Below, one piece after another: positions 4,943-50,502 of a stretch of 64,000 nt of DNA. The stretch's first letter is position 1. Each line of letters opens with the position of its first letter. Both the position numbers and the translations under genes were made by a program. Origin of the DNA: Candidatus Poribacteria bacterium (lineage in GTDB: Bacteria > Poribacteria > WGA-4E > WGA-3G); contig CAXXLX010000001.1 in assembly GCA_963665235.2 (NCBI GenBank), positions 2,464,001 to 2,528,000 of the forward strand, read 5' to 3'. The notes beneath the pieces are model-generated. The model was not told the DNA's origin and made no database searches. It saw nothing but the letters and a program-made list of their open reading frames with translations.

Positions 4943-4985
4943 TCCGAAAACCTAATTGATTAAGCGTTTCAAACACGAAAGAAAA

Positions 4986-6177
4986 ATGGCAAAACTACAA
5001 TTAACGGATATAAACGTAGCTGACAAACGGGTTCTCGTGCGCGTGGATTTTAACGTGCCACTGAAAGATGGTAAAATTACGGATGAAACCCGTATTACCG
5101 CTGCTTTGCCTACCCTGCTAGACCTCATTCACAGGGGGGCGAAAACCGTTCTCGTCACACATTTAGGCAGACCAACAGTTGGGGCATCTGCTGAACGCGA
5201 GGCTCTTTCTACTGCGCCAATTGCTATAGCACTTAGCCAAAAACTAGGCAAACGGGTCGCCCATGTTGACGATTGCATCGGTGAAACTGTGGAAAATGCT
5301 GTTGAGTCGTTGGAGAGTGGCGAAGTTTTGCTCCTTGAGAACGTCCGATTTTACGCTGAAGAGATAGATAACGACCCGGAGTTTGCAAAGCAGCTTGCGT
5401 CTCTCGCTGAAGTCTATGTCAACGATGCCTTCGGCACTGCACACCGTGCCCATGCTTCAACGGAAGGGAGTGACACATTACTTAACACCGTGCGTTGCGG
5501 GTTTGCTTATGGCACGCGAAATTCATTATCTCAGCATGACCCTTGAAAATCCTGAACGCCCATACGTAGCGATTCTTGGCGGTGCAAAAATATCGGATAA
5601 AATCACACTGATTGAGAAGCTATTAGGAAAAGTTGATACGTTGCTTATCGGTGGGGGTATGGCTTACACGTTCCTCTCTGCCATGGGCGTTGCTACTGGC
5701 AATTCGCTCGTTGAAACGGAGAAACTTGACGTAGCGGCATCCCTTATTGAGATGGAAGGTTTTTCAGATACCGTGCTCCTTCCGGCCGATCATGTTGTTG
5801 GGCGCGCGTTTGCACCTGATACTGAATTAAGGATTGTTGACGATGTGCATATCGCCGAAGGGTGGCAAGGATTGGATATCGGTCCCAAAACCGTCGCTGC
5901 CTTTAGTGAACAGCTCGCTTCCGCGAAAACGGTAGTGTGGAACGGTCCTTTAGGCGTTTACGAATTTGAAAAGTTTGCTCAAGGCACAATTGCGATTGCA
6001 AAACAGATTGCCGCCGCTGAAGCGACAAGCATTATCGGCGGCGGGGACTGCGTTGCAGCGATACAGCAGGCTGGTGTCGCCGATCGGATAACACATGTTT
6101 CCACTGGTGGCGGTGCATCATTAGAATTTTTAGAGGGTAAACCTTTGCCCGGAATTACGGCATTAACTGATAAATAG
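4986..6177 (+). CDS. pgk: Phosphoglycerate kinase, split by one extra base near 5467-5470 (probable assembly error)
   Basis: [30 protein letters not shown] in one frame, then [27 protein letters not shown] in the next. Confidence 0.93.
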
Positions 6178-8019: not shown

Positions 8020-10080
8020 ATGCGCTACACATCACAGCAAGATGATTGGTTAGTTCAACCCTTTTGCCAACCCGCTTCAATCCAAGAAACGGACAATCAG
8101 CTTATTCTTGAGAATGGGCTCATTCAGCGAAGGTTCGTCACCGCACCGAATTTCGCTACGGTGGATTATGCCAATCAAATTACGGAGAGCAGTCTGCTTC
8201 GTGGCATCAAACCGGAGGCAGTCCTGACAATTGATGGACAGGAATTTGAGGTGGGCGGTTTGAAAGGACAGCCCGACTACGCTTATCTTGATTCGGAGTG
8301 GATTGCGGACTTGACCAGTGACGAGAACGCGTTTCAATTTCGCGAATATCGAGTCGGTAAACCTGAACCCCCCTATCCATGGGTTCAAAGACGTTCTAAT
8401 ACATCGTCAGTCTATCCGCCAGAGGGTGTGACGCTGACGGTTGTGTTTTCATCGCCTCCATCCGCCGACTCGCTTCAGGTTTGTGTGCATTATGAACTAT
8501 ACCAAGGCATTCCCGTACTCGCCAAGTGGATTACTGTTCACAATGAGAGTCAAAAACCGATTCAACTGGATACCTTAAGCTGTGAAATTCTTGCTGTCAA
8601 CGAGCAGGAGAAACATCGGCTGCATGTTGAGAGCGATTATGCTTTCAGTGGTATGGAAACGACACAGTGGGGACCAGATGCGGATTACAAGACGCAGGTC
8701 GATTATCACTATCGGATGCCGCTGTTGATGACAAGCCGCTATCCACTCGGTCCGGGGGTATCCCTTCAACCGGGCGAGACCTTCAAGAGTTTTCGCACCT
8801 TTGAGATTCTGCATGATAGCGATGACCGCGAGCGAAAAGGGCTTGCACGTCGCAAGATGTATCGCACGGTTGCACCGCAGGTCACGGAAAATCCAATCCT
8901 CATGCACGTTCGGAGTGCTCAACCTGAGGCAGTCCGTTTGGCAATCGAGCAGTGCGCTGAGGTCGGATTTGAGATGGTGATTATGACCTTCGGGAGCGGT
9001 TTCAATGTTGAGAGCGAAGACCCGGAATATATCGCTACAATGAAGGAATTGGCAGATTATGCCCATCAAAAAGGTATTCAGCTCGGGGGGTATACGTTGA
9101 TGTGTGCTTCGCGAGGGGTGGGTGAAGACTTCAACTGTATTGACCCAGACACCGGGCAACCCGGCAGTAAGTTTGGACAGAGTGCTTGTCTTGCAAGCAG
9201 CTGGGCAGATGGTTATGTCCAACGCGTGCTGAATTTCATGGATGCAACCGGGATGGATGTCATAGAGACAGATGGCCCGTATCATGGCGATGTTTGTGCT
9301 TCAACAACGCACGCCCATCATAACAGCTTGGCGGATTCGCAGTTGCGGCAGTGGGAAACGTGTGTGAGTTTTTATCACGAGTGCCGAAAACGCGGTATCT
9401 ATATCAATTCGCCAGATTTGTATTACCTCAACGGTTCGAACAAATGCGGTATGGGGTATCGAGAAACGAATTTCAGTTTGCCTCGCGAGCGGCAAATTTT
9501 AATCGCCCGGCAGAATATCTACGATGCGACATTCGAAAAAACGCCGAGTATGGGATGGATGTTTGTCCCGTTGGTGGAATATCACGGCGGTGGACAAGCC
9601 GCAACATTTGAACCGCTTTGTGAACACCTCGATGACTATGAAGCACATCTTGCACAGAACTTCGGGAGTGGCGTGATTGCGTGCTATCGCGGGCCTCGCC
9701 TTTTTGACACGGAACAGACGAAGGTTGTTGTTAAGAAATGGGTTGACTTCTACAAAAAGTATCGCCCGATATTGGAGTCCGATCTGATTCACGTGCGTCG
9801 TCCAGATGGACGCGCTATCGATTGTGTGCTCCACGCGAACGCGCAAATCAATCCCTGCGGATTAGCGATGCTCTATAATTCTACGAATACGGTGCAACAG
9901 ACTACGCTGAAATTGCCGGTCTATTATACAGGCTTGTCTGAAACTGCTAAGATTCGTGAAAGAGAGGGAGAGCCCACACTGTACAAAATCGACCGAAATT
10001 ACAACATTGAGATTCCAATCAAGATGGAGGCGAAGAGCGTTAGCTATCTCGTTATTGAATCTACAGCAATTAGCAATTAG
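8020..10080 (+). CDS. Putative glycoside hydrolase (alpha-galactosidase/GH36-like)
   Basis: N-terminal beta-sandwich-like region (LENGLIQRRF, VHYELYQG..KWITVHN), then a barrel-like region with CLASSW and IETDG. Confidence 0.55.
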   Translation: MRYTSQQDDWLVQPFCQPASIQETDNQLILENGLIQRRFVTAPNFATVDYANQITESSLLRGIKPEAVLTIDGQEFEVGGLKGQPDYAYLDSEWIADLTSDENAFQFREYRVGKPEPPYPWVQRRSNTSSVYPPEGVTLTVVFSSPPSADSLQVCVHYELYQGIPVLAKWITVHNESQKPIQLDTLSCEILAVNEQEKHRLHVESDYAFSGMETTQWGPDADYKTQVDYHYRMPLLMTSRYPLGPGVSLQPGETFKSFRTFEILHDSDDRERKGLARRKMYRTVAPQVTENPILMHVRSAQPEAVRLAIEQCAEVGFEMVIMTFGSGFNVESEDPEYIATMKELADYAHQKGIQLGGYTLMCASRGVGEDFNCIDPDTGQPGSKFGQSACLASSWADGYVQRVLNFMDATGMDVIETDGPYHGDVCASTTHAHHNSLADSQLRQWETCVSFYHECRKRGIYINSPDLYYLNGSNKCGMGYRETNFSLPRERQILIARQNIYDATFEKTPSMGWMFVPLVEYHGGGQAATFEPLCEHLDDYEAHLAQNFGSGVIACYRGPRLFDTEQTKVVVKKWVDFYKKYRPILESDLIHVRRPDGRAIDCVLHANAQINPCGLAMLYNSTNTVQQTTLKLPVYYTGLSETAKIREREGEPTLYKIDRNYNIEIPIKMEAKSVSYLVIESTAISN

Positions 10081-10235
10081 CAATTAGCAATTGGCAAGAG
10101 TTTGTGATTCTAAACAAACTTCTGACGCGCGTCAGAGACCTCCTCCTCTTTCTCTTGTTATAGGTTTCCAACGGTTTCCAATAGCCAACAGCTCGTAGGG
10201 GTTGGGTTTCCCAACCCGCAAATAGCCAACAGTTT
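10065..10235. repeat. Heptamer-repeat (GCAATTA / TAGCCAA) flanked palindromic element containing a GTAG REP
   Basis: (GCAATTA)n GCAAGAG...CTCTTG; GTAGGGGTTGGGTTTCCCAACCC at ~10195; relatives at 24625-24758, 49763-49850, 50092-50192. Confidence 0.65.
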
Positions 10236-16892: not shown

Positions 16893-18950
16893 CTATTCCG
16901 GTATTTTGTTCATGGAAGAGATTTTATCCCAGTCCCACAAAAGTACAGTTCCATCTTTAGAACTACTTGCAAGCGTTTTGCCATCGTGAGAAAATCGGAG
17001 CGTTTCGATTTCATCTGAATGCCCGGGATAAGTAGCCAACCGCTCTGCTTTTTCCAGATGCCATAATTCAACTGCATAAATAGTATCATTTCTGTTCATT
17101 ACTAGTCTGTTCCCAGTAATGCCAACAAGGAGGGTTTTACTATCTGGGGAGAATGTTAAGGTATTCACCTTTGCCCACTTGAGTTGAATCAGATGCTCAG
17201 TAAGAATTGTACTGGGTTTTCGCCCGGTGTTAAGATTCCATAAATGGATTTCGGTGTGAGTGCCGATAGCAAGAATAGTGTTATCAGGTGAAAATGCCAA
17301 GCTCTGGGCACTTCCGATAGCAAGTGTCGCAAGTTTTTGACCTGTGTTTGCATTCCACACAAGGGTTTCGTTGAAATTTCCGCCTGTAGCTAGGAGCATA
17401 CTATCTGGTGAAAATGCTAACATCCTGTCACGAACCTTGGGAAAGCTCACGGTTTCACGTCCAGTACTCACCTCCCATAAACGTATTCCGCTAAAGGCTG
17501 TAGTTGTGGCGATTAGTCTGTTATTGGGAGTGAATGTTAGTGTATCCGGTCTAAATTTTACTTGGAGCGTGTCGATTTCGACTCTAGTGTTCAGATTCCA
17601 TAACCGAATTATATTAACATTTCCCCATCCGGCGGTGCGTCTCTCAACATGGTATCCGTTTCGTGCAGATACAATTGCAGCATGGGTTGGACTCATGTTA
17701 ACAAAGAGGGAGGCATCTGATGAAAGAGCCATTGCTTGGGTCAGCGCGATAGGTGCTACAGTAAATGAATTTAGTTTATCTCCAGTGTTGATATCCCATG
17801 TTTGGATTTTTCCATTAAAGGTCGCGGTGACACATAACTTGTTGTCCGGTGAGAACGCAACTGCCCGTGTGTCCATTATGTGTTCTGTAGCAATAATAGA
17901 CAATTCTTTACCTGTGTTTACGTTCCATAAGCGGATGGTACCATCTAGACTACCGCTTGCAAGTGTTTTCCCATCGGGTGCAAAGACGAGTGTATTGATA
18001 GTATGCGTATGCGCTTTAAGTGTAGTACGGAGTTGTCCTGTATGAGCATCCCACAAATGTATTGTTTTATCAATGTCACCACTTGCAAGGGTAGAATTAT
18101 CTTCAGTAAACGCTATGGCAGTAATCCATCCATTGTGTCCTTTGAGCGTAGCCCGTTCGGTGTGTGTGGCAGTATCCCACAATCGTACTATCCGCTTTCC
18201 ACCGCCAGTAGCAACGGTTTTGCCATCAGCTGAAAACGTCAGGGTCATAATTCCATGGCTGGCTCTGCGTTTCTCTTTATTTGCTTGCTTTAAAAATTGA
18301 AGAACAGATTTCGTTTTCCGAGTGAGAAAACCTTCTTGTTCGAGGGACTTTAGCGGCAATAAAGTAATTTTTCCATCTCGAGTAACACCAGCAAAGGTAC
18401 TATTATCTCTAGCACAAGCCAATGGACCGCCTACACCAGTACTTTCCTTTTGCAAAAGTCTTCTTCCGGTAGCAATCTCCCAGCGTATAAGGGTGTTTTC
18501 TTCAAGCCAATTGGCATGCAAGCCGATGAGGTTTTTCCCATCCTTTGAGAAGGTAAGGGCTACACCATCAATATTGGGATGAGAACGGAGAGTTTGAATG
18601 TTTTTACCTGTTTCCAGGTCCCACAACAGAATGACTGGACTGGAACACCCACTACTTGCAAGAATACGGCGGTCAGGGGAGAGCACTATATTGTCAACGC
18701 CACCGGGATGTGGCGTGAGTATATTCTTCACGTCTCCGGTGTTAACATCGTAAATCCAAACACCGATATCGGTACCTACGGCAAGCTGAGTCCCATCGGC
18801 CAAAAACTGCATTGTGGTAATTTTACCTTTACCGATGCGAGCTATGGCTCCGTTGGGTAAGTTAATTTGTGATTCCTGCTGCGCGTAGATAGGTGGCAGC
18901 AGCATCGAAACAGATAGGAACACAATACAAAACATTCGTTTTATCGCCAT
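16893..18950 (-). CDS. Secreted WD40-repeat beta-propeller protein
   Basis: Signal peptide; repeated GH...FSPDG..LASGS.DGTIRLW units. Confidence 0.9.
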   Translation of the reverse strand: MAIKRMFCIVFLSVSMLLPPIYAQQESQINLPNGAIARIGKGKITTMQFLADGTQLAVGTDIGVWIYDVNTGDVKNILTPHPGGVDNIVLSPDRRILASSGCSSPVILLWDLETGKNIQTLRSHPNIDGVALTFSKDGKNLIGLHANWLEENTLIRWEIATGRRLLQKESTGVGGPLACARDNSTFAGVTRDGKITLLPLKSLEQEGFLTRKTKSVLQFLKQANKEKRRASHGIMTLTFSADGKTVATGGGKRIVRLWDTATHTERATLKGHNGWITAIAFTEDNSTLASGDIDKTIHLWDAHTGQLRTTLKAHTHTINTLVFAPDGKTLASGSLDGTIRLWNVNTGKELSIIATEHIMDTRAVAFSPDNKLCVTATFNGKIQTWDINTGDKLNSFTVAPIALTQAMALSSDASLFVNMSPTHAAIVSARNGYHVERRTAGWGNVNIIRLWNLNTRVEIDTLQVKFRPDTLTFTPNNRLIATTTAFSGIRLWEVSTGRETVSFPKVRDRMLAFSPDSMLLATGGNFNETLVWNANTGQKLATLAIGSAQSLAFSPDNTILAIGTHTEIHLWNLNTGRKPSTILTEHLIQLKWAKVNTLTFSPDSKTLLVGITGNRLVMNRNDTIYAVELWHLEKAERLATYPGHSDEIETLRFSHDGKTLASSSKDGTVLLWDWDKISSMNKIPE

Positions 18951-19291
18951 TTGTTAGTTCTCCACAAGGTTGTAGGGGTTGGACATCTTCTTGTATGCTA
19001 ATTTTCGCAGCGTATTCAGGGAAAAGGATTTCGTAGCGTTTCAGTTAACTCCAAATCTCTATTGGCTCCCTATCAATATAGGACGGACGCAGCGCGTTGA
19101 TGAGTCGATAGGATAATAGGATTTAGAGGGAGACCTAGCGGGCGAGGGGACCTCGCCCCTACAATGCGGTTTCTGATGTTCAGTATATCATTAATCTTCG
19201 AGGAATGTCAAATTTTTTATGAAAAAATGCTGATTTTTACGGAATTCCGCCGCGCCAATGCGTAAACTTGTTTATGGGATTTTTCGACAGG

Positions 19292-20044
19292 TTATATGTC
19301 CAACGGCACCACGTCGGCATATACATAGGTGGGTGCGGATTCGGTGTGAATTTGATCATCGCTATCTTCGGAGGCCGACACAATAGCTCTTTGCACGATT
19401 CTGCCCGGTTTCGCGGCAATAGGCGAATGAAACATCGGGCCAGCAATGACACATGTATGGAACTCGCCATTTTCCCCAAGCGGGTCTACGCCATCGGGCA
19501 AATCGGCGATGAGGTCCGTATCAAACCAGCGTCCTGCTAAATCAGCGGGAACTTTGGTGGGATTGAGAGCGGTGACAATTGCACGCAAGCCGGATGCAAT
19601 CATCGTTTGCGCGAGCTGCGTTGTGTCCTCTCCCCAGACCGGAAAAATAGGTGTGAAGCCGGTGCCGCGCAGCTTCTCCTCTCGGTATTCACGGATGTCC
19701 TCAAGAAACAGATCACCGAATGCAAAATGGGAGGCGGTCATATCCGCTGGCAACGTTGCCACTTCTGCAAGAAACGCGCGCATCGCGGCTTCGTATATCT
19801 CATTAGAGCACGGGTACGGAATCGGTATCTGGTACAACGGCACACCGAGCTTTTCCGCTTGCTGTTTCAGCACCCAGCCGGGGGTGGAATGGATAGAAAC
19901 CCGGTCAAACGTCTCCGTGACGGTGGTAAAAATGCCGCGCACGTCGTATCGTTCCGGTTGTTGACGCAGTGTGTGAAGTGTCCACGCTGAATCTTTGCCT
20001 GAAGACCAGGAGACCAGAACTGGGGTGGGTGTTATGTTGTTCAT
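19292..20044 (-). CDS. Adenine nucleotide alpha-hydrolase, diphthamide-synthase-like PP-loop ATPase
   Basis: SWSSGKDS PP-loop, FGDLFLED, GENGEFHT. Confidence 0.85.
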   Translation of the reverse strand: MNNITPTPVLVSWSSGKDSAWTLHTLRQQPERYDVRGIFTTVTETFDRVSIHSTPGWVLKQQAEKLGVPLYQIPIPYPCSNEIYEAAMRAFLAEVATLPADMTASHFAFGDLFLEDIREYREEKLRGTGFTPIFPVWGEDTTQLAQTMIASGLRAIVTALNPTKVPADLAGRWFDTDLIADLPDGVDPLGENGEFHTCVIAGPMFHSPIAAKPGRIVQRAIVSASEDSDDQIHTESAPTYVYADVVPLDI

Positions 20045-20140
20045 CTCTTTTGCCGTGTTAGTACCATTGAGGTTTTACCGTGCATCAACTGCTCCGCGCG
20101 GACAACCTCAATGATACACTAAGGATAAAAGCAGAAAATC

Positions 20141-22339
20141 TTATTTCCGTATTAACATCTTGCGCGTAACGGTGAAATCGCCTGCGGTGAGGGTATAGAA
20201 ATACACGCCGCTTGCAACAGACTCACCGAGTGCGTTTTTGCCATCCCAATAGGCGGCACGGTTTCGACTGTGATAAATACCGGCACGTTGATGTCCTAAG
20301 TCTAAATCCCGCACGACGCGGCCGTTGATGTCATAAATCGTCAACTTTACGTCTGATGCTTTGGCCAGTTGGTAGGGTATCCAGGTCTCTGGGTTGAATG
20401 GGTTTGGATAGTTCGCTAAAAGTTCGGTCTCTTTAGGTGTTAGTGCTGCCAAGAGCTGCTCTAAAAAGAGAATACCCTGTTGAAAGGTTGCATCTGTCAA
20501 ATTTAGCTTCTGGGCTTGGGATAGCCACTGCTGTACATCCGATTTTCTAAACATGTTTTCATAGCGCGCCCAAGCTGCTGGTGCAGCAGCCTTATTACCC
20601 AATGCGCCTGCAACTAACACCAGATCCACAATATCAATAATCCCATCCTTATTGACATCTGCCGGATTGCGCGGACCAGGAACAGTAGACGTGATATTAT
20701 CCAAGATATCATACCAAGCACGTTGCTGACTACTAGATAAACCACCACTGCTATCTGCTGCTAAATCAAGTTCAAAATTTAAAATGCTAATCATAATCAG
20801 GTCGTCGATATCAATAACCCCATCCTTATTAACATCTCCTATTTCCATTATGTGTGTTACAGAACTTTTACCGAAACTTGCGGCGACGAGTGTCAAATCT
20901 AAAATGTCTACAACACCATCAAGGTTAACATCCTCTCGTAGTCGTGGCCCCCCAACAACCATTGAATTTACTTGATCAAAGTGGGGAAGGTGTTTACCAA
21001 CACTATTAACTATTCTTGAGCTGGACAAGGTTAGGGTTGATTCTTTGATAGCAATAAATTCAAATGTTAGGGTTGCAAGAGTGCCGTCACCGCTGCTGCT
21101 GTCATTAACAGAGGTCGCGCCAAGTAGAACTTCATTTCCATCGACAACTGGGGCCACAAAAAACGAATCGTCCGGTAAATAATCTCCGTTCGCACTTGAA
21201 ACATAGCGAAGTGCCGTTGTATCGAAAAGCACCTTAGCTTGAAAACCAGTGATGTCTTTACCTGAAGTAATATTGATGTTAAGAGTTAGCCTGTCTCCGA
21301 TAGCTGCGGCATCTATTGGTAATGCCGTGATGTTCACACGGGTAGCAGGTGCCTTCCACAATCGGATGGTTTTTTCAACACCTCGGATGGTTTTGTCAGA
21401 ACTCCCACTTGCCAGCATTGAACCATCCGGACTGAACGATACGCTCCTGACCCTATCCGTATGCCCCGTGAGTGTTCTGATGTGTTGTCCCGTAGTCGCA
21501 TCCCACAAGCGGATGGTTTTGTCAGAACTCCCACTTGCCAGCATTGAACCATCCGGACTGAACGATACGCTCCTGACCCTATCCGTATGCCCCGTGAGTG
21601 TTCTGATGTGTTGTCCCGTAGTCGCATCCCACAAGCGGATGGTTTTGTCAGAACTCCCACTTGCCAGCAGTGAACCATCCGGACTGAACGATACGCTCCT
21701 GACCCAATCCGTATGCCCCGTGAGTGTTCTGATGTGTTGTCCCGTAGTCGCATCCCACAAGCGGATGGTATTGTCAGAACTCCCACTTGCCAGCAGTGAA
21801 CCATCCGCCGGACTAAACGCTACGCTATTGACCCAATCCGTATGCCCCGTGAGTGTTCTGATGTGTTGTCCCGTAGTCGCATCCCACAAGCGGATGGTAT
21901 TGTCCCCACTCCCACTTGCCAGCAGTGAACCATCCGCCGGACTAAACGCTACGCTACTGACCCAATACGTATGTCCTGTGAGTGTTCTGATATGTTGACC
22001 CGTTGTCGCATCCCATAAGCGGATGGTGTCGTCCCCACTCCCACTTGCGAGCAGTGCCCCATCCGGACTAAACGCTACGCTCCAGACAGAAGCCGTATGT
22101 CCTGTGAGTGTTCTGATATGTTGACCCGTTGTCGCATCCCATAAGCGGATGGTGTCGTCCCCACTCCCACTTGCGAGCAGTGCCCCATCCGGACTAAACG
22201 CTACGCTCCAGACATAATCCGTATGCCCTTTAAGAGTCGTATAGGAAATCTCGTGGGCAAAGGTGTTGGGTAAATAGATCGTTAAAATCAGAAGTATCAT
22301 CAAAGAAATGGAAATTTGCGTTTTTTTCATTACAAACAT
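20141..22339 (-). CDS. Secreted WD40 + cohesin + dockerin/EF-hand-like + C-terminal sorting-type domain protein
   Basis: Seven near-identical WD40 units (126/129 bp); cohesin-like GFQAKVLFD...GDGTLATLTF; DVNxDG repeats; LANYPNPFNPETWIPY...ASGVYFY tail. Confidence 0.9.
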   Translation of the reverse strand: MFVMKKTQISISLMILLILTIYLPNTFAHEISYTTLKGHTDYVWSVAFSPDGALLASGSGDDTIRLWDATTGQHIRTLTGHTASVWSVAFSPDGALLASGSGDDTIRLWDATTGQHIRTLTGHTYWVSSVAFSPADGSLLASGSGDNTIRLWDATTGQHIRTLTGHTDWVNSVAFSPADGSLLASGSSDNTIRLWDATTGQHIRTLTGHTDWVRSVSFSPDGSLLASGSSDKTIRLWDATTGQHIRTLTGHTDRVRSVSFSPDGSMLASGSSDKTIRLWDATTGQHIRTLTGHTDRVRSVSFSPDGSMLASGSSDKTIRGVEKTIRLWKAPATRVNITALPIDAAAIGDRLTLNINITSGKDITGFQAKVLFDTTALRYVSSANGDYLPDDSFFVAPVVDGNEVLLGATSVNDSSSGDGTLATLTFEFIAIKESTLTLSSSRIVNSVGKHLPHFDQVNSMVVGGPRLREDVNLDGVVDILDLTLVAASFGKSSVTHIMEIGDVNKDGVIDIDDLIMISILNFELDLAADSSGGLSSSQQRAWYDILDNITSTVPGPRNPADVNKDGIIDIVDLVLVAGALGNKAAAPAAWARYENMFRKSDVQQWLSQAQKLNLTDATFQQGILFLEQLLAALTPKETELLANYPNPFNPETWIPYQLAKASDVKLTIYDINGRVVRDLDLGHQRAGIYHSRNRAAYWDGKNALGESVASGVYFYTLTAGDFTVTRKMLIRK

Positions 22340-22498
22340 TCTCCTTTTTGGATTTGTATTTTCGGTCTAACGGGTTTGCGTTCGATATTTTAACTCAAGT
22401 TGCCATAATGATAGCATGGTTTGAATCATAGGTCAAATAAAATTTGCGATTGGGTGGTAAAGTAGGGGCGGGGTTTCCCCGCCCGATTAGAAACCTCA

Positions 22499-23062
22499 CT
22501 ATAGTGCCAAAAAGTTTGCTAAAAGACTCTTCCCAGCAGCAGTCAAAATAGACTCCGGATGAAACTGAACTCCCCAGACAGGCAGTGTTTTATGCCGAAG
22601 TCCCATGATTTCGTCCTGAGCTGTCCATGCGGTAATTTCCAAGCAATCTGGCAATGTGTCTTTTTTCACAATGAGCGAATGATAACGCGTCGCTTCAAAA
22701 GGGTTATCCAAACCGTCGAAAAGTTCTGTGCCGTTATGCAGTATCATTGAGGTTTTACCGTGCATCAACCGCTCCGCACGGACAACCTCACCGCCAAACA
22801 CGTCCCCGATACACTGATGCCCGAGGCAGACCCCCAGAATTGGCACTTTTCCAGCGAAATGTTTTATGACATCGTTGGATATGCCCGCTTCCCGTGGCGT
22901 GCAGGGGCCGGGTGAAATAACGATGCGTTCGGGAGAAAGCGCGTCTAACGCCTCTATACCTATCTTTCGGCTGCGATGAATTTCTAATTCAGCGCCGAGC
23001 TCTCCCAAATACTGCACGAGGTTGTAGGTAAACGAGTCGTAGTTGTCAATCATCAAGACCAT
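22499..23062 (-). CDS. trpG: Anthranilate synthase component II / glutamine amidotransferase
   Basis: [28 protein letters not shown]; follows trpE. Confidence 0.92.
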
Positions 23063-23073
23063 CTTTTTGCCTC

Positions 23074-24612
23074 CTATAACAACAGGCCGTGTTCTGCCAT
23101 CTCAATAGCTCTGAGCACGGCACGTGCCTTATTCATGGTTTCATAATACTCATTTTCGGGTATGGAATCAGCAACGACACCTCCACCCGCTTGCACGTAA
23201 GCGATGCCATCTTTGATGACAGCCGTTCGAATGGTTATGGCTGTGTCGGCACTGCCAGAAAAACTGAAATAACCGACTGCCCCGCCATACGTACCCCGAC
23301 GTGTCGGCTCTAATTCGTCAATTATCTCCATTGCGCGGATTTTAGGTGCCCCAGAGAGTGTCCCTGCCGGTAAACAGGCACGCATAACATCAAAAGCGGA
23401 AACATTCTCGCGCAACCGTCCGATAACATGCGATACAATGTGCATCACATGTGAGAAACGTTCGATTATCATCAGCTCGGTTACCTCAACGGTCCGATAT
23501 TCACACACCCGGCCGAAGTCGTTTCGTCCTAAATCGACGAGCATGACGTGTTCTGCCCGTTCCTTCGGATCATTAATAAGTGTCTGTGCTAGTTCGTGGT
23601 CTTCCTCGGTTGTCTTACCGCGGGGACACGTGCCGGCTATTGGACGGTGCTGTGCAATTCCATCTTCTACCCGTACCATCATCTCTGGCGATGCACCCAC
23701 AATGTCAAAACCACCCAGCTTTAAATAGTACATATATGGGGAGGGGTTGACTACTCGCAATGCCCGATAAATATCAAACGAGTCAACGGATACCGGGCAG
23801 CTAAATCGCTGTGAAGGCACAACCTGTATGATGTCGCCTGCGGCGATGTATTCTTTGGCGCGCCGTACTGCGTCTTCGTAAGCGGGTTTTGTAAAATTTG
23901 ATTGTAGCACGCGTGAGGATTTAGACAGCTGTTCAACCCCCATGTTCTCACTATCTGTAGGATTGGTTTGTCGGGTTTCTCTATGTTCAACCCGACCTAC
24001 AAGATCGGGAAAAACCTTTAGTTTTTCGACCAATGCATCAATTTTCTCTATAGCCTCAGCGTAAGCTGCATTTACATCCCCGTCAATATGTGCATTAGCG
24101 ACAACTTTAATCTGATGATTTACATGATCGAAAATTAGAATTGTCTCTGTGAGCATGAAAAAGCAATCGGGGAGCTGCAGTTCATCTTCGGTCTCATCGG
24201 GCAGTTCTTCGACAAAGCGCACCATGTCGTAACTCATATAGCCGACTGCCCCGCCGTGGAACTGCGGTAACCCTTCAACTTCAACGGGGTGATATTTCTG
24301 CATCATGTCTTCAAGGACTTGCAGCGGGTCATCGCAGGTTAGTGAAACCTTCTCCCCTTTTGACAGATATTCGATTGTTACCTGATGTCCTTTGCTGTGA
24401 AAAAGCACAGAGGGTTGACTTCCGAGAAACGAGTAGCGAGCGACCGTTTCGCCGCCTTCAACGCTTTCTAGCAAGAACGCAAAGGTATCGGGCATTAATT
24501 TGTAAAAGGCGGACACCGGTGTCTCCATATCCGCCAAAATTGGGCGATAGACCGGTATCATGTTGCCTATTTTCGCTTTATCCTGAAATTCCTCCAACGT
24601 CGGATAATACAT
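23074..24612 (-). CDS. trpE: Anthranilate synthase component I
   Basis: FLLESVEG and NPSPYM Trp-feedback motifs, [21 protein letters not shown]. Confidence 0.95.
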
Positions 24613-24757
24613 GGATGTCTCCTTTGGCGATTAGCAATTGGCGATTAGCGATTAGCAATTGGCAAGAGAAAGAAGCCTCTGACGCGCATCAAAATTGTAG
24701 TCAGAATCACAAACTCTTGCTATTAGCCAATTGCCATTAGCCAACAGCCACTAGCCA

Positions 24758-25138
24758 TTAATACACTGCATCTGCTTCAAAAATTTTTTCACCTATAACA
24801 CGCGTTGCCGTTCCGTCGGGGGAGACTTCCCGAAAGAAGCAGGAACGGTAGCCGACATGACATGCTGCTACCTTCTGCTCAACCTTTATGAGCAGGGCAT
24901 CTCCATCGCAATCCACTGCGATAGATTTGACTGTCTGTGTATGCCCTGAAGTCTCCCCCTTTCGCCAGAGTTTTTGGCGGGAGCGGCTCCAGAAACAGAC
25001 ACGGCCGGTAGTCAGCGTCTCTTTTATCGCCTCCGTATTCATATAACCCAGCATCAACACTTCGTTATTTGTGTCGTCTTGGATTACTGCGGCGACTAAT
25101 CCATCGTTGTCATATTTTAGTTCGGATAAAATTTCCAT
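24758..25138 (-). CDS. hisI: Phosphoribosyl-AMP cyclohydrolase
   Basis: [35 protein letters not shown]. Confidence 0.96.
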
Positions 25139-25162
25139 GATTTCTCCTTAGGCTGTCATCTT

Positions 25163-25206
25163 AAAAACAGAAAACCTCATGCCACTGCGGGGTGTGCATA
25201 AGGTTT
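25163..25206 (-). terminator. Attenuator (3:4) intrinsic terminator upstream of hisI
   Basis: Minus strand AAACCTTATGC-loop-GCATGAGGTTT followed by TCTGTTTTT. Confidence 0.8.
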
Positions 25207-25245
25207 AAAGGTAACGTCAAAATCGGTATTGACAAATTCGCTTGC

Positions 25246-25338
25246 TTAGCGCGCACACTCCCCCTTATCGGAATTGGAATGCCACCAATGCCAATCGTGT
25301 CCATTTGTATTTAGAGCGGAATATGCAGCAAATAACAT
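25246..25338 (-). CDS. His/Trp-rich leader peptide MLFAAYSALNTNGHDWHWWHSNSDKGECAR
   Basis: Translated by hand; AAGGA RBS; codons CAC GAT TGG CAT TGG TGG CAT; followed by antiterminator/terminator stems. Confidence 0.85.
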   Translation of the reverse strand: MLFAAYSALNTNGHDWHWWHSNSDKGECAR

Positions 25339-25422
25339 CGTTTTTTCTTTCCTTATTTGAGATTCATTGTAATTACAAAATCTACCATAGCTCGCTGCAC
25401 TTATGCGGAATCTGAAGTTGAT

Positions 25423-25656
25423 TTATCGATGGGCCTCCATATACGCTCGAAGCACTGTATTCATCCGCGTGTAGTAATCTTGCCCTTGTGCTTTGAACCA
25501 TTCCAAGATTTCAGGTTCAATCTGAAGGTAATTTTCAGGAACAATCCGCCGAGCATTTTCCCAAAAATCATCGGATAGTTCAGGGATTTCTGACGTATCA
25601 ATTGCGTCCTCAGGCAAGTCCTCAATTTCAGAGAACCGTGTTTTTGACAGCTGCAT
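25423..25656 (-). CDS. brnA: BrnA-family antitoxin
   Basis: IDTSEIPEL...FW; ILEWFKAQG..Y.TRMN.VLR; overlaps brnT. Confidence 0.85.
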   Translation of the reverse strand: MQLSKTRFSEIEDLPEDAIDTSEIPELSDDFWENARRIVPENYLQIEPEILEWFKAQGQDYYTRMNTVLRAYMEAHR

Positions 25657-25930
25657 GGTATCTTCTCCTTTCTTTGAGGGTTGCTTTTCTGGCGGAGATA
25701 ATTTGTGTCTGCCCGTTCCTATTTGTGTGACAAACTACCAACACCGCGCCACCTCCAAGCGTTCCAATGGTAATCTCTCGAATCTCGGTTCGCTTGTGTT
25801 CATCGTAATAATCTCTGGGGTCGACTCTCGTGAAATGAACACTTTGAAAAATACGTATTGCTTCTTCAAATCGAATTCCATGCTTTTTGAGGTTCATTCG
25901 GTTTTTCTGCGTGTCCCACTCAAATTCCAT
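25628..25930 (-). CDS. brnT: BrnT-family toxin
   Basis: MEFEWD..KN..N.KKHGI.FEEA; IISARKAT..E. Confidence 0.9.
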   Translation of the reverse strand: MEFEWDTQKNRMNLKKHGIRFEEAIRIFQSVHFTRVDPRDYYDEHKRTEIREITIGTLGGGAVLVVCHTNRNGQTQIISARKATLKERRRYHAAVKNTVL

Positions 25931-26073
25931 TTCTATAACGCTATCCCGGTTCATTTATAGTAAAATCTGAAAACACGTTGCGTTGACAGTGCCAGGGAAA
26001 TTAACCACCCTGCCTCGATGTCGAGAGGAAAACCAAAGATTGAGGTCTCCAAATAATTGTAGACTTGACTGTA

Positions 26074-26148
26074 ATTATACCCTATTCCCAGGCGAATGTC
26101 AAATTTTTCAGAAAAAATTTGACAAAAAATGGGATAATGTGGTATAAT
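26074..26148. promoter_or_regulatory. Divergent sigma70 promoters for brnTA (-) and the B12 operon (+)
   Basis: Minus TTGACA-17-TATAAT at 26074-26102; plus TTGACA-18-TATAAT at 26119-26148. Confidence 0.7.
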
Positions 26149-26171
26149 TAACTTGTAAACAATTAAATAAA

Positions 26172-26362
26172 CGAACGGTTCAGGTGCCGGATTACGGAGA
26201 ATAGGGAAGAGCGGTGAGAATCCGCCACGGCCCCGCCACTGTGAACGATTAATGATTTCCATAAAAAACGGGAAATTTTTCGCTGGCAAAAACCACTGTC
26301 AAAAATTGAGATGGGAAGGTGCAAGCGGAGATGTTCAGAAGTCAGGAGACCTGCCTGAATCG
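26172..26362 (+). promoter_or_regulatory. Cobalamin riboswitch
   Basis: AGGTGCC...AATAGGGAA..CGGTGAGAATCCG..CGGCCCCGCCACTGTGA...CCACTG...GGGAAGG...AAGTCAGGAGACCTGCCT (B12 box). Confidence 0.93.
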
Positions 26363-26504
26363 TGTTTCACGCTTATGCTTTCGCGGGAAAGCGAGGAAAC
26401 AAAGCACAGCGAGCTCTTGTTAGGTTCAGATGTTCACAACGTGCTGTCTTGTCCCCTGTTTTCCATAGAAAGCAGGGGTTTCTTGTTTCATTACGGAGGT
26501 TTTA

Positions 26505-27782
26505 ATGAATACAATCTTTTTCCTACGGCGGCACTTCTTATGCACAAAACGTTCACGGTTTCACACGTTTCTATTGATAAGCACACTACTTTTTATGCTC
26601 CTGATGGGTTCTGCTTTCGGACAAACCGAGGTTCAGAACATAGCGGTTGTTGTAAATGCGCTGACGCATTTTGACTTGGGCATCACCACATCTCTCTCCA
26701 TTATAGATTTAGCAGAATCGGATGCAAAGCGGGCTGTTACGAACGATGTTGTCCCGCTCGGCAATGTGCCGAACGACCTTGTGATTCGTGGGCATCTTGC
26801 CTACGTAACCAACGCCTTTAGTGACAATATCCTGATTATCAACCTACAGCACCGAGAAATTGTCGACACGATAGCATTCCGTTCAGGCGCGAATCCCCAA
26901 AAACTCGCTTTTGTAAACGAGAACAAGATGTATGTCACCTGTGAGGGGGCCAATGAGGTGCATGTTGTAGATGTCGCTGCGAGACGTGTGACGAAGACGA
27001 TTATCGATATATTCAATAAACCTTTCGGTATCACGATTCTCAACGGGAAGGCGTACGTGACAAATTCTGCCTGGGAATATGATGTGGTGGAAAAGGCAGT
27101 CCGTTATCATCAGAGCAGTGTCACCGTAATTGATACGGTAACGGACACCGTCCTAAAGACAGTTCCGATGCCAACAAACGCCGGGGAGATTCTCAACGAT
27201 GGCGAGTCTACTGTTATTGTCAAAACAACAGGCGATTACAATCTCATTCCTGGAAACCTCGTTTTCATTGACTCGACGACTGATGAAATTGTCAAAACGG
27301 TGAAGCTGAGAATGACCCCAGGGTCTTTTGCAATCAATTCACAGAAACACCTATTTATTCAGGGAAGATTTCCAAGCCGAGGCCTCTTCATTTACGATGT
27401 AGTGGATATGAATTGGATTCGCGGGCTGTATACGCCAATCGTAGATGAGAATGATGGCTGGGGAATGACTTTTGCCCCAGATGACACTCTCTACATCGCT
27501 TATCCCGATTGGGGTGGAGGCGGTCAGGATGTCGTTCGTGTTCTGGGCACTGATGAAACATTCCACCAAACGTACCGGGTTGGGCATGGGGCTTCCATTG
27601 TGGCAATTGCACAACTCGTAATTCGGCCTGAGGATGTCAACGACGATGGGCTGGTTGACATAAGGGATTTAGTGATGATCAGTCAGAATCTCGGGCAAAG
27701 GGGGCAAGGAGTCCGTGGCGATGTTAATAAGGATGGCAAGGTTGATATTCTCGACCTAGTTCGTGTTGTTCAGCATTTCTAA
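26505..27782 (+). CDS. Secreted YncE/YVTN beta-propeller with C-terminal dockerin-like EF-hand pair
   Basis: Signal peptide; AYVTN, MYVTC, AYVTN repeats; EDVNDDG and GDVNKDG. Confidence 0.85.
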   Translation: MNTIFFLRRHFLCTKRSRFHTFLLISTLLFMLLMGSAFGQTEVQNIAVVVNALTHFDLGITTSLSIIDLAESDAKRAVTNDVVPLGNVPNDLVIRGHLAYVTNAFSDNILIINLQHREIVDTIAFRSGANPQKLAFVNENKMYVTCEGANEVHVVDVAARRVTKTIIDIFNKPFGITILNGKAYVTNSAWEYDVVEKAVRYHQSSVTVIDTVTDTVLKTVPMPTNAGEILNDGESTVIVKTTGDYNLIPGNLVFIDSTTDEIVKTVKLRMTPGSFAINSQKHLFIQGRFPSRGLFIYDVVDMNWIRGLYTPIVDENDGWGMTFAPDDTLYIAYPDWGGGGQDVVRVLGTDETFHQTYRVGHGASIVAIAQLVIRPEDVNDDGLVDIRDLVMISQNLGQRGQGVRGDVNKDGKVDILDLVRVVQHF

Positions 27783-27832
27783 CGCGGATGGTTTATGGAG
27801 TATCAGGGTTATTTCGTTTAAGGTTTTGGACT

Positions 27833-29816
27833 ATGCGTAAATGGGTCGTGCTCGGGAGCTCGCTCCTACTTTTAACGTTGCTCCTCACTGGGTGTACACC
27901 GAAGTCGGAAGATGCTTCCCTGGCATGGCAGATTACGTTTTTTCCGCTCGGTGCCAAGATACAGTTTGAGCAACGAATCGCCGGTGGCGCAGGTTTCAGC
28001 CTTTAGTGCCGATGGAACGTTGGTCGCTCAACTCAATTTTCCCACACCGCCGCGTCAGATAGAAGTGCTTTATTTTGAATGGCGCGAGGCGGAGGTGTAT
28101 AGATTTGAGGCGACCTTATCCACTGGACAGGTTCACGTCCAAAGTGTGACTGCGCCCCGTGAACCTCCCCGCGGCAGCATAGAACTTGCTATTCCTTACG
28201 GCGTAGCACAGAAGATAGAGGCGGTACATTCCGCCGCTGAACCCCTCACAAAGGCACTTGTCTTACAAGGAGGTGAAATGACAGCCACGGTCGTCGTCAC
28301 GAACGGAAATGCACCGAGTGCGTTTGAGGTAGAGCTCTGCCTCCCCTCAACGTTTTCCATTGTTCAGGTGCCTATAGGTTGGAAATCTGAAACAACTGGT
28401 GCCGAAACCTGTTTGTCTACGACTGGCACATTTCGGATTACCTCGGAGGTCTACTATCGTGAGTTCGTTCTAAAGATTCCTGTAGAAAACACAGTGCCGA
28501 ACGGTGTTCAGGACATGCCTGTTACAATTAGAGGGAGGGTTCGCTTTAAAACGGATGCAGGCGAGATATCCGAACAGACAACATCGGTAATGTTGAACAT
28601 GGCGACGATTTCGGAGATTGCCGGGCATCTCTCTATAGAATCTATTCAGATGCCTACGGATGCGGTGGGCATCGCTGCCCTTCAGCAGCGACCCGATACC
28701 ATCGTTATGTTACGGAAACCTACGGAGAATGTCTACTATCGTTGGTTGGAAAAATTTGGAATAAAACCCCGCACCTCCCAGATTGATGTGTTTGAGCCGA
28801 TAGCTCACCAGACAGTGCGGCTCCGTAATCGGAGCGAGGAGACTATCCATGTCGTTGTCTCTTCCATCAATCGAGACGCGAAGAGTGGCGAGCCTCTGCT
28901 GTTTCTTGCACCGCCGGACGCAGTTAGTGCGGGTACCGGACAGAGTGTCGCTTTCGCCAGCTTACCGGGTGAGACAGTGACAGCCATTCCTTTGCCTCTC
29001 TACCTTCATCCACAAGCAGCTAAGGCGGGAACATACCAGCGGGAGATTGAGGTAAAAGTCTGGGGAAGTAATGCCACAATTCTTCGGGAACAACGACCAC
29101 TCTATCTCATCGTCCCGAATAGACATGCGCTGTTTGTAAGTATGGTGGCTATTGTTGTCAGCGGTATCGGATTGGCAGTGCTTCTGTGGTTTCACCAACG
29201 ATTTTTTGCCCGTTGGACAACGAAACAACTTATCGTCATTGCACTCTTCGGTACAACGATTTTTGTAACAGTTGTCGTACCCTCAACACTGTTTTTGAAC
29301 CTCATCCGCGCACTTCTCGGCCCCTTTGCTGGGTTGTTGAGCGGACTGATTAACGAGACACTCTACTATGCGTTGCTGACCGCGTTGCTTATCTATATTA
29401 ACGGTGCCCCCAGCGGTACCCGGAAACAAAGACACAATAAATTGTGTGATGATGTGCCAAATATGCAAGGCGGTGTCATCCTACTTGTCTCTGCTGTCCG
29501 CTTACTTCTCGGCGGTGTCATGTTTGGCAGTTTCACGCCGATGGAAATTGTCTATACTGGGACAAGTGTCATCCTGCTTGAGACAGGATTCCTACTTGTT
29601 CGAAGGCGTGGTTTATTTGCATGGGCGTTCGTGCTCGCTATATGCGATGCAATCGCTGTATATGTTGAGTTCCAGCTCTCTATCCTGTTCTATCGTCTCT
29701 TTTTCGCCGATTGGTATATCGTCCTTCGAATTATAGTAGAGGGATTCACCTATACCTTTATCGGCGTACTTCTGGGGGCAAGGTTGGGACGTGGATTGTG
29801 GAAGGTGGCTGAATAG
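27833..29816 (+). CDS. Lipoprotein with large extracytoplasmic region and C-terminal multi-TM ECF S-component-like domain; frameshift near 27970
   Basis: MRKW...LLLTGC lipobox in one frame joins ESPVAQV... in the next; about 6-7 hydrophobic helices around and after RWTTKQLIVIALFG. Confidence 0.6.
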
Positions 29817-29874
29817 ACATGGATAACTTATGTTACGAAAACCTTAGGAGCGGGCTGCTTGCCCGAATATTGAA

Positions 29875-31530
29875 ATGAAAAAACATCAAATTTTTAGCAT
29901 CGTCTGCCTGCTTATCGCTTGGCATCTCAACGGGGCGGCAGCCGATATCGATGTCATTTGGGTTCGAGCAGGGGCAGTGCTTGAAATCCAGCAGGAACAC
30001 AACGTCGATAGTAAAATCAAAGTCGAAATGATGACTAATGGAACAGCACGTGAACTTGCTAAAACGCCAACAGTCCTGCGGATTGATGCTAAACGTGTCC
30101 TACTCCAATTTACATGGAAACCGAACCAACGTTATCAGTTTCGCCTAGAGAGGCATGTAACAGAGGCGACCTCGCCACTCAAACCGATGCCCTACTTAAT
30201 TCGTACGGTGCAACTGGATGGACTCTTATCGCTTTTGGAAAATCTCAGGCAGCCAGCGAAACCGACAACGGTCCTGTTTTCACCGGATGCGGAAAAACTT
30301 GCCATTGCAACCGACACCGGACACCTTGCAATTCTCCAACCGCTCACTGGCGAAATCCTTTGGAAAACCCGAATCTCCGAGGGCTATGTCAAATACATGG
30401 CATTTAGCACAGATAGCACTCGACTCTACATTGGCGAGCAGGCAGTGGATGGGTTTATCTATGCATACGACGTGTCGCAGTCTAAACCGACACGTCTCTG
30501 GAAATATCGCACAGCTGACGACATTGAAACCTCAACGCCGACTAATCCAGAAAACGTCTATGCCTGGATTAGCTACCCCGGTCCATCGTGCATGCGAACG
30601 CTAGCGAACGGTGACCTACTCGTTGCCAGCGTACACACATGGACTCAAAAGGACATATCGCATAGACAGTCTCAACTTTACCGGTTCAACGGGAAAACAG
30701 GCGAGCTCAGATGGAAATGGCCACGGGATGGGGCATTGCCGCGGATACTCCGTTGGTTTGACATCAGTGCTGATGGAAAAACACTCCCGCTTGTAACGGA
30801 TAAAAGCCGCCTGGGCAACGGAACGCTCTCTGTGCTCAATACTGAAACAGGAACAACACAGTGGCAGGCGAGTTTTGAACCGCTCACGCCATACTTTGAG
30901 GGTGTTAGTTTTTGGCGGGGAGTCAGTATATCACCGAATGGGAAGTTTATCAACATTACAGTGGATGATGGCCGTGCATACATCTTCGACGTGAATAAAC
31001 AGAAATCGATATGGCAGGACAATTTAACCACACCGCTTGAAATGGGTGGCATTCCAATCGTTGCAACTTCCGGCACGATAGGTGCAACGGATGCAGCCGC
31101 CCTCTTTGTAACAGGCGATACATATATTCCGTATCATCTCCAAAAGGGAGCACAACGGCCCTCGGCACTGCATCCAAACGGCATGACATTGTTTGCCTAT
31201 TCTTGGGAAGGGGAGAAAATATGGCAGTGGAAACTTGAGAATATGCCCCAAGGTTTACGAATTGATGGAAATGACCGATATGCTGTCCTTTCTGTCTCTA
31301 AAAAGAGCCGAAATCCGAATGAACACCTACACGGCGTTTCGGTATTTGACCTCACAGCGGCCGGCGGTGGCCTGTCGAAATATCTTTACACTTACCGCAC
31401 CGAGGGACAACTGCCCTATGATACGCTTGCTATCAGCGCGGATGGCAGTCTCATCGCTGTAGTTGAAATGCCGATTACGATGCCTGATAAGACCGTGCGC
31501 GGAAAAAATCGGGTGCATGTGCTATATTGA
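29875..31530 (+). CDS. Secreted PQQ-like/WD-type beta-propeller protein
   Basis: Signal peptide; repeated TG...W blade ends with FSPD/ISADG starts. Confidence 0.7.
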   Translation: MKKHQIFSIVCLLIAWHLNGAAADIDVIWVRAGAVLEIQQEHNVDSKIKVEMMTNGTARELAKTPTVLRIDAKRVLLQFTWKPNQRYQFRLERHVTEATSPLKPMPYLIRTVQLDGLLSLLENLRQPAKPTTVLFSPDAEKLAIATDTGHLAILQPLTGEILWKTRISEGYVKYMAFSTDSTRLYIGEQAVDGFIYAYDVSQSKPTRLWKYRTADDIETSTPTNPENVYAWISYPGPSCMRTLANGDLLVASVHTWTQKDISHRQSQLYRFNGKTGELRWKWPRDGALPRILRWFDISADGKTLPLVTDKSRLGNGTLSVLNTETGTTQWQASFEPLTPYFEGVSFWRGVSISPNGKFINITVDDGRAYIFDVNKQKSIWQDNLTTPLEMGGIPIVATSGTIGATDAAALFVTGDTYIPYHLQKGAQRPSALHPNGMTLFAYSWEGEKIWQWKLENMPQGLRIDGNDRYAVLSVSKKSRNPNEHLHGVSVFDLTAAGGGLSKYLYTYRTEGQLPYDTLAISADGSLIAVVEMPITMPDKTVRGKNRVHVLY

Positions 31531-49766: not shown

Positions 49767-49858
49767 CGATTAGCAAATGGCGATTGGCAAGAAATATAAG
49801 AGACCTCTTTCTCTTGCTAATTGCCACCTGCCACCTGCCAAATGCCAAATAAGGAGGT

Positions 49859-50095: not shown

Positions 50096-50502
50096 CGATT
50101 AGCTATTGGCTATTGGCAGAGGTTTGTGAGGCTAAAAGCATATCTGAAGCACGGTAGAGACCTCCTCCACTTGCTAATTGCCAACTGCCAATTGTTATAC
50201 TAAACTTTGGACAATTTTAGGGGTGGGTAACGTTCTTGTCAGTGGTGTGGTTGCATTTTCTATAAACATATCGCCCCGATGGGGCTAGTTTGTGGTGTGG
50301 TTGCGTTTTCTATAAACATTCCGCCCCGATGGCGAAACCGCGCTTTTGCACATTGGAGGTTATTTTTCTCCTATTTGTCCTTGTGTGAGAAACATTGAGA
50401 AAAATCGGAAATGCTTTGAAAATCGGGCATCAGACTCACGGATATTGTCCAAACTATAGTATACTATACTTTGGATTTTAACACTATTTGGAGGAGAATT
50501 AC

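Follow-up and report, generated by a model that had tools for sequence, protein, structure and literature searches.

A probable leader-peptide attenuator with interleaved Trp and His codons upstream of hisI-trpE-trpG in Candidatus Poribacteria

In the trp attenuator of Escherichia coli (trpL, Rfam family RF00513), a short open reading frame (ORF) with clustered Trp codons is combined with the mutually exclusive stems 1:2, 2:3, and 3:4 and with an intrinsic terminator that precedes the first structural gene; region 2 is blocked once a ribosome occupies the stop codon. The his attenuator (hisL, RF00514) places His codons in a leader ORF before a histidine gene. Leaders may also be multivalent, with codons of several amino acids in one leader and read-through upon shortage of any of them; the thr leader mixes Thr and Ile codons, and the ilv leader those of Ile, Leu, and Val. 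Mixed amino acid codons, and thus a multivalent leader, are also described for the "LVVI" leader of Mycobacterium tuberculosis ilvB1 (PMC13236596). Here, we analyzed 64,000 nucleotides (nt) from a Candidatus Poribacteria bacterium (GCA_963665235.2, contig CAXXLX010000001.1, positions 2,464,001 to 2,528,000; hereafter, the window), in which a small minus-strand ORF with interleaved Trp and His codons precedes hisI, trpE, and trpG and resembles these leaders in its layout. The element is very probably a ribosome-mediated Trp attenuator. We lean slightly toward a fuller reading, in which hisI-trpE-trpG is under a classical attenuator that has Trp as its primary signal and that a shortage of His also opens (an OR gate).

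A leader ORF and alternative stems ahead of hisI-trpE-trpG

An earlier note on this DNA, made from the sequence alone, had proposed a leader-peptide attenuator on hisI-trpE-trpG. This proposal was supported by our analysis, as two other Poribacteria genomes carry the same leader, terminator, and antiterminator, and the peptide is found in four further database entries. Translation of the minus strand confirmed the unannotated ORF at 25338-25246, which encodes the peptide MLFAAYSALNTNGHDWHWWHSNSDKGECAR with the core HDWHWWH. Three His codons (25299-25297, 25290-25288, and 25281-25279) are interspersed with Trp codons in its control stretch, so that the seven positions at 25299-25279 hold three CAY and three TGG codons, as had been claimed. 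A 7-codon segment with at least three TGG and at least three CAY codons occurs once in the 64-kb window, in any frame of both strands, and in none of 200 first-order Markov shuffles. Among the genes of the window, His codons make up 2.3% and Trp codons 1.4% of the total, and the genome uses the His codons CAT and CAC at 138:106.

Relatives of the locus were identified at the levels of DNA and of peptide. Named proteins among the 120 best TrpE relatives listed, which were 77 to 95% identical, belong to Candidatus Poribacteria. A genome scan queried with TrpE gave 80 TrpE loci among the matches listed, of which two are from Poribacteria (L001 and L002). Both carry hisI, trpE, and trpG in the window's order, with a small ORF with a Trp/His core before hisI, and their hisI copies in the equivalent position are 88% (L001) and 87% (L002) identical to that of the window. 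The first gene after the terminator is hisI in 3/3 DNA loci, which places a gene of a second pathway under the attenuator. A profile of the three leader peptides, searched against 1.84 billion representatives, matched three predicted peptides with E values from 4e-12 to 2e-6. A second search, with a six-leader alignment headed by a 52-amino-acid (aa) database ORF, gave four matches, one of them new. The matching peptides are P0121 to P0124, the start Met of P0122 to P0124 being taken from the alignment. Comparisons of the leader accordingly cover three sequences at the DNA level (window, L001, and L002) and seven leaders at the peptide level. A short, presumably translated ORF that begins with ATG is present upstream of the biosynthetic operon, and its start is conserved in L001, in L002, and in the four database peptides. 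The upstream neighbors of the leader differ among the three loci: the window has BrnTA, L001 a sigma factor, and L002 a cobalamin riboswitch. The leader element is accordingly associated with hisI-trpE-trpG rather than with the genes upstream of it.

The terminator and antiterminator proposed in the earlier note were both borne out by folding. The 3:4 terminator of the window (25206-25163), with arms AAACCUUAUGC and GCAUGAGGUUU and a U-rich tail, recurs in L001 and L002, where hairpins with U runs reach -18.3 and -15.9 kcal/mol, respectively, compared with -17.2 kcal/mol in the window. Its 14 pairs are kept in 92.9% of cells of the three-sequence alignment, and in the window 24 nt separate the end of the hairpin from the ATG of hisI. 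A simple terminator scanner did not call the hairpin at 25206-25163, in our reading because the loop exceeds the scanner's 8-nt limit. When the transcript was folded only up to region 4, GGG-A-GUGUGCG (25262-25252) paired with UGCACACCCC (25198-25189), and the truncated transcripts, cut before region 4, folded the 2:3 antiterminator in the window, L001, and L002 alike. All 7/7 pairs of the 2:3 core are kept and invariant, while a second, short 2:3 helix is kept by different letters: GGG/CCC in the window, GAGG/CCUC in L001, and CGGGG/UCCCG in L002. Region 2 ends 3 nt from the stop codon in the window and in L001; the L002 stop codon lies about 10 nt further downstream, where a terminating ribosome would cover region 2 in part. 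Region 2 is nucleotide identical in 3/3 sequences, although L002 reads it in another frame, which indicates that region 2 is an RNA element.

Stem 1:2 departs from what had been proposed. The pairing suggested in the earlier note, GCAUUCC at the last His codon with GGAGUGU, can form at -11.0 kcal/mol but lies outside the minimum free energy (MFE) structure, and the corresponding duplexes of L001 and L002, which are formed by other pairings, are weak, at -8.5 and -8.7 kcal/mol. The conserved partner of region 2 is instead a segment at codons 5 to 7, here termed region 1, with counterparts CGCACUCC in L001 and CACACUCC in L002. The full-length MFE structure of all three leaders consists of this stem 1:2 and the terminator 3:4, and stem 1:2 is also present in the RNAalifold consensus. 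Its 8/8 pairs are kept in 3/3 sequences, three of them with a one-sided change, and the duplex energies are -18.9 (window), -15.0 (L001), and -15.2 (L002) kcal/mol. Across all stems, 95.7% of cells in the three-sequence alignment are paired, compared with 34 to 45% when the partners are slid by one to three columns. Folding with a ribosome mask was also tried; the footprint still let L001 pair 1:2 around the ribosome, which is sterically doubtful, and the result was not used as evidence.

The RNAalifold consensus further contains an inner hairpin that spans the control codons, with the consensus (G/C)AUUGG.A.(U/C)G ... C(A/G).U.CCAAU(U/G). It pairs the first Trp codon and the codon before it with the Ser-Asn codons, and it joins the first two bases of the second Trp codon to the beginning of the codon that follows the third Trp. 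Its nine pairs are kept in 96.3% of cells, and two of them have changed on both sides among the three sequences; in L002, a UGG-to-CGG change in the second Trp codon is matched by a CAU-to-CGG change. The hairpin may serve as a pause or synchronizing hairpin.

Taken together, these features suggest a course of events, each step of which is read from the anatomy of the sequence. Transcription would start about 35 nt upstream of the 30-codon leader ORF. The candidate extended -10 element (Table 1) aligns with TGgTATTAT of L001 and L002, and L002 has TTGACA 17 nt upstream of it; the candidate at 25379-25387 was not among the calls of the promoter/terminator scanner. A fast ribosome would reach the stop codon and cover region 2, upon which 3:4 would form and transcription would terminate at approximately position 25163. 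A ribosome delayed at codons 14 to 20 would leave region 2 free to pair with region 3 once the latter is made, and RNA polymerase would then continue into hisI, trpE, and trpG, which are presumably co-transcribed in the window. With no ribosome on the leader, stem 1:2 would form and the terminator would be active. One to four His codons lie among the Trp codons, with others earlier in the leader, and would be part of the same control stretch. Because His codons lie inside this stretch, a shortage of charged tRNA-His should give the same read-through as a shortage of charged tRNA-Trp, and such an OR gate suits the operon because its first gene is a histidine gene.

Table 1. Positions of the leader element and of the genes that follow it (window coordinates unless a locus is named)
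Feature	Position	Strand	Remarks
Candidate extended -10 element TGgTAGATT for the leader transcript	25379..25387	-	Putative
AAGGA, possible leader ribosome-binding site	25350..25354	-	11 nt 5' of ATG
Leader ORF, 30 codons plus stop	25246..25338	-	ATG at 25338, TAA at 25248-25246
Leader ORF homologue, L001	4249-4344		
Leader ORF homologue, L002	4091-4192		
Region 1 (GCAUAUUCC, codons 5-7)	25318..25326	-	Conserved partner of region 2 (anti-antiterminator)
Control codons CAC GAU UGG CAU UGG UGG CAU (H D W H W W H)	25279..25299	-	Codons 14-20
Inner hairpin GAUUGG.A.UG / CA.U.CCAAUU	25272..25296	-	RNAalifold consensus, spans control codons
Region 2 (GGGGGAGUGUGCG; also written GGAGUGUGC, GGAGUGUG[C])	25252..25264	-	Pairs with region 1 or region 3
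Region 3 (UGCACACCCC; GCACAC...CCC)	25189..25198	-	Antiterminator partner of region 2, overlaps terminator 5' arm
Intrinsic terminator (regions 3:4), U-rich tail UUUUCUGUUUUU	25163..25206	-	Folding, -17.2 kcal/mol
AAGGAG, hisI ribosome-binding site	25144..25149	-	
hisI, monofunctional phosphoribosyl-AMP cyclohydrolase, 126 aa	24758..25138	-	NF000768 174 bits vs cut-off 126; PF01502 only
hisI-trpE spacer, long imperfect hairpin of 7-nt tandem repeats	24613..24757	-	
trpE, anthranilate synthase component I	23074..24612	-	TIGR00564 585 bits vs cut-off 517.7
trpG, glutamine amidotransferase component II	22499..23062	-	TIGR00566 272 bits, above cut-off

Trp and His codons in seven leaders

The seven leader cores share a layout of two positions followed by W, x, W, W, x. 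They read HDWHWWH in the window, HHWHWWH in both P0122 and P0124, NHWHWWC in L001, NYWHWWR in P0121, NHWHRWR in L002, and IHWRWWH in P0123. The three Trp positions are kept in 7/7, 6/7, and 7/7 leaders. At the four remaining positions, His is found in 3/7, 5/7, 6/7, and 4/7 leaders, and it fills 18 of the 28 non-Trp core cells. Each of the seven leaders has at least one core His and three to five His in all, and the total of 28 His in 218 residues may be set against the background of 2.3%. The related pair L002 and P0123 have two core His each, at different positions. In the six Trp leaders that precede trpE without hisI (L024, L025, L033, L044, L069, and L079), by comparison, only 3 His were counted in 147 residues, with zero or one per leader. 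Residues of these comparators were counted from Met or from the start nearest the Trp run, and two further loci with Trp-rich small ORFs (L034 and L049) were left out, as they have no hairpin with a U run.

The comparison of His with Trp codons had been set beforehand in the earlier note as the test on which its proposal could fail, and the outcome is mixed. The Trp codons are kept and His is enriched throughout the leaders, but the positions of His shift from one leader to another. On this evidence, we consider it somewhat more likely than not that read-through rises on His starvation. Whether the His codons are maintained by selection for His sensing appears to us evenly balanced. A still stronger version, a selected two-input OR gate for which His codons were recruited among Trp codons after hisI had come behind a trp leader, is put forward only tentatively, as slightly the less probable outcome.

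Alternative readings of the leader

A number of observations weigh against the OR gate and against parts of the attenuator model, and several of them concern the reach of the data. The seven leaders belong to one lineage, and the database peptides were recruited by similarity to the query profile, which favors conserved cores. Conservation of the stems is established, but covariation is not: with three sequences, 219 of 500 shuffles reached the observed values. The AAGGA taken in the earlier note for a ribosome-binding site is indeed present at 25354-25350 but is not kept in L001 or L002. With its position 5' of the control codons, region 1 would be left uncovered by a stalled ribosome, so that its exclusion from region 2 is a steric argument only. 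The spacer between hisI and trpE is 145 to 296 nt long and not conserved, so that an internal promoter for trpEG is possible; in the minus strand of the 145-nt spacer of the window, the scanner found no promoter-like or terminator-like site. The chief caveat, however, is the inner hairpin, as several His codons are constrained at the RNA level.

This caveat is the core of the strongest alternative, a Trp-only attenuator in which the His codons are by-products and hisI is a passenger behind a trp leader. The His codons would then stem from CA and AU strands complementary to a UGG-rich sequence or from duplication of a CAUUGG hexamer, and hisI would be sufficiently expressed by basal read-through, or the cell would have another route or copy. 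We regard this alternative as possible, if rather doubtful. Pairing in the inner hairpin and region 1 can explain the CAC at codon 7, the AU that precedes the first Trp, and the CA that follows the third. Immediately ahead of the first Trp, the three DNA copies have GAU, CAU, and CAU, whose AU pairs with that of an AAU codon. Changes in the codon that follows the third Trp are matched by changes in the second Trp codon (U-A, U-G, C-G), and in L001 and L002 the CAC of region 1 encodes the His at codon 7. Synonymous change would indicate conservation of His at the codon rather than the RNA level, and it was not seen in the three DNA copies, where no aligned His codon shows an interchange of CAU and CAC, a comparison of low power. 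The Trp-only explanation also accommodates the lower conservation of His positions relative to Trp positions and the single core His of P0121. A further point in its favor comes from Streptomyces lividans, whose trpL1 leader of 18 residues contains 3 His although the gene that follows is a monocistronic trpE (PMC8079986), so that the presence of His in a Trp leader does not by itself imply that His is sensed.

Base pairing does not account for all of the His codons, however. In the CAU codons, the first-base C is unpaired, as between the first and second Trp, or dispensable for pairing, but 6/7 and 5/7 leaders retain it. Additional His codons are present in the group of leaders to which the window belongs, among them a CAC that lies two codons 5' of the first Trp and outside the predicted stems. 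The comparator Trp leaders without hisI, with zero or one His each, also run counter to a Trp-only origin. Moreover, even by-product codons in the control stretch would sense their tRNA: a ribosome that stalls at the neighboring Arg codon of the E. coli trp leader also prevents attenuation (PMC1183508), and any codon in the control stretch should therefore report its tRNA.

It is very unlikely that the leader peptide acts by its sequence, either as a nascent arrest peptide responsive to a free ligand, for example Trp, or as a small trans-acting peptide, with the H/W core as a peptide motif. The core and the S-N that follows it are conserved at the peptide level in seven leaders, and trans-acting trp leader peptides are reported in Sinorhizobium (PMC7298713, PMC6614838). 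Nevertheless, the arrangement of the ORF, region 2 at the stop codon, the antiterminator, and the terminator is the geometry of charging-dependent attenuation, and the S-N residues are specified by the inner hairpin's CCAAU strand. The remainder of the peptide varies freely, and its C terminus changes frame in L002. Most improbable of all is the absence of any regulatory element, with the hairpin as the terminator of the upstream BrnTA operon, from whose brnA stop codon it lies about 215 nt downstream on the same strand, and the small ORF as a chance frame, since the same ORF and stems are found in L001 and L002 with other upstream genes and no BrnTA, the H/W codon cluster appeared in 0/200 shuffles, and four homologous peptides were independently predicted.

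Genomic setting and comparison with known attenuators

The genes that follow the terminator had been described as one His and two Trp biosynthesis genes, and their identity as hisI, trpE, and trpG was confirmed by scores above the respective family cut-offs. The hairpin in the hisI-trpE spacer is strong (-51 kcal/mol, z of -3.99), and the spacer is not conserved in L001 or L002. Heptamer arrays like those of the spacer occur at 10066-10097, 49773-49831, and 50171-50188 of the window, with 10 matches compared with 0.09 expected, and may represent a dispersed intergenic repeat family. In L001 and L002, too, trpG follows trpE. On the 3' side of trpG in the window, a 160-nt gap with a promoter-like site is followed by an unrelated WD40/T9SS gene. 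A gene for a diphthamide-synthase-like ATP pyrophosphatase (PF01902) follows trpG in the relatives (L001, 7519-8307; L002, 7024-8542, two copies) and may share their transcription unit; in the window, the WD40/T9SS-tail gene (20141-22339) intervenes between trpG and the PF01902 gene (19292-20044, minus strand).

Upstream of the leader, a BrnT toxin/BrnA antitoxin pair (25423-25954, minus strand) lies between the leader and a cobalamin riboswitch (RF00174; 26165-26372, plus strand, 99.5 bits). A perfect TTGACA-17-TATAAT promoter at 26102-26074 precedes the pair, which is absent at the equivalent place in L002 and therefore looks like an insertion. The riboswitch is a divergent neighbor of the leader region in both the window and L002 (3699-3931, minus strand, 90.7 bits), and in the window it precedes a gene for a dockerin-domain protein (26505-27782). 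Elsewhere in the window, phosphoglycerate kinase (4956-6177, plus strand) is split into overlapping ORFs at 4956-5546 (Pfam PGK residues 1-164) and 5383-6177 (residues 153-379), by a frameshift or a sequencing error.

A hisI homologue directly upstream of trpE on the same strand was found in 29 of the 80 TrpE loci among the matches listed, namely, in 2 Poribacteria, 5 Verrucomicrobia, and 22 other loci. Twenty of the latter are titled Solirubrobacterales, Thermoleophilia, Actinomycetota, or Actinomycetes, and two are titled "uncultured bacterium." In the Thermoleophilia/Actinomycetota type, the hisI ORF reaches or overlaps the first in-frame trpE start in 16 of the 17 loci checked, and a fused hisIE was confirmed by Pfam in three of those 16 (three scanned). 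The five Verrucomicrobia loci have a monofunctional hisI (Pfam on L067 only), followed by a membrane-protein-like ORF of about 175 aa before trpE; in L067, the ORF directly 5' of hisI resembles the C terminus of hisF by eye. In these 27 non-Poribacteria loci with hisI or hisIE before trpE (L007, L014-L017, L019, L028-L030, L032, L036, L038, L042, L043, L048, L051, L054, L056-L058, L061, L062, L065-L067, L070, and L072), no leader ORF with at least two Trp in seven residues was found directly upstream of hisI. The few Trp-rich ORFs present are inside hisI, between hisI and trpE, or chance-like. A leader and terminator before hisI are thus a Poribacteria feature among the 80 loci listed.

The same scan gave Trp-codon leaders with strong terminators directly before trpE in the six comparator loci (L024, 4688-4888; L025, 4782-4892; L033, 4725-4898; L044, 4752-4901; L069, 2585-2686; and L079, 4788-4859), which are from Binataceae-type, Smithella/Syntrophales, and other metagenome-assembled genomes. 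Two successive terminator-like hairpins are present in L069 and in L079.

The linkage of hisI(E) with trpE is thus seen in three phyla (Actinomycetota-type, Verrucomicrobia, and Poribacteria), and no explanation for its recurrence was found in the searchable literature. If the reading as a selected OR gate is true, the linkage would point to a broader, unexplained connection between the synthesis of histidine and that of tryptophan. The earlier note had inferred an OR gate that would couple two separate PRPP-consuming pathways and knew of no prior description of one, and none was found in the literature searched. No description joining hisI, trpE, and a leader peptide was found, older attenuator surveys being outside the search; a publication on His and Trp codons in leader peptides models the two operons separately; and no account of attenuation in Poribacteria was found. 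The present locus brings within the range of classical attenuation an uncultured phylum that is largely associated with sponges and in which regulation is readable from sequence only. If confirmed, the leader would be a naturally occurring, compact sensor with two inputs, about 180 nt long, and would indicate that attenuation can join two separate pathways by codon mixing. If true, it would be the first described cross-pathway multivalent attenuator, with one operon serving two unconnected pathways.

Compared with E. coli trpL, the Poribacteria leader is twice as long, its region 1 lies upstream of the control codons rather than containing them, and it has an extra hairpin over the control codons, interleaved His codons, and hisI instead of trpE as the first gene. 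Whereas hisL has a run of consecutive His codons, the Poribacteria leader has three to five scattered ones and controls only hisI of the histidine pathway. Matches to both Rfam families are lacking: a cmscan of positions 18000 to 30000 at E values up to 1 returned only the cobalamin riboswitch, with neither RF00513 nor RF00514, and scans of L001 and L002 at gathering scores returned neither family as well. The leader element works like the Trp_leader and His_leader families without being a member of them.

A Trp leader with a terminator that controls the anthranilate synthase step only is likewise described for Sinorhizobium meliloti trpL-trpE(G) and Streptomyces lividans trpL1-trpE. In both organisms, the other trp genes are elsewhere, and no his gene is in the unit, in contrast to Poribacteria (PMC6614838, PMC8079986). 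The S. lividans leader further differs in being leaderless and 18 residues long, with His that are not interleaved with the Trp run (PMC8079986). There is also a parallel in logic with the multivalent leaders, in which the amino acids sensed are those of one connected, branched pathway and the enzymes of the operon serve all of them. In the Poribacteria leader, by contrast, the codons are those of two separate pathways, each of which is served by different genes of the operon.

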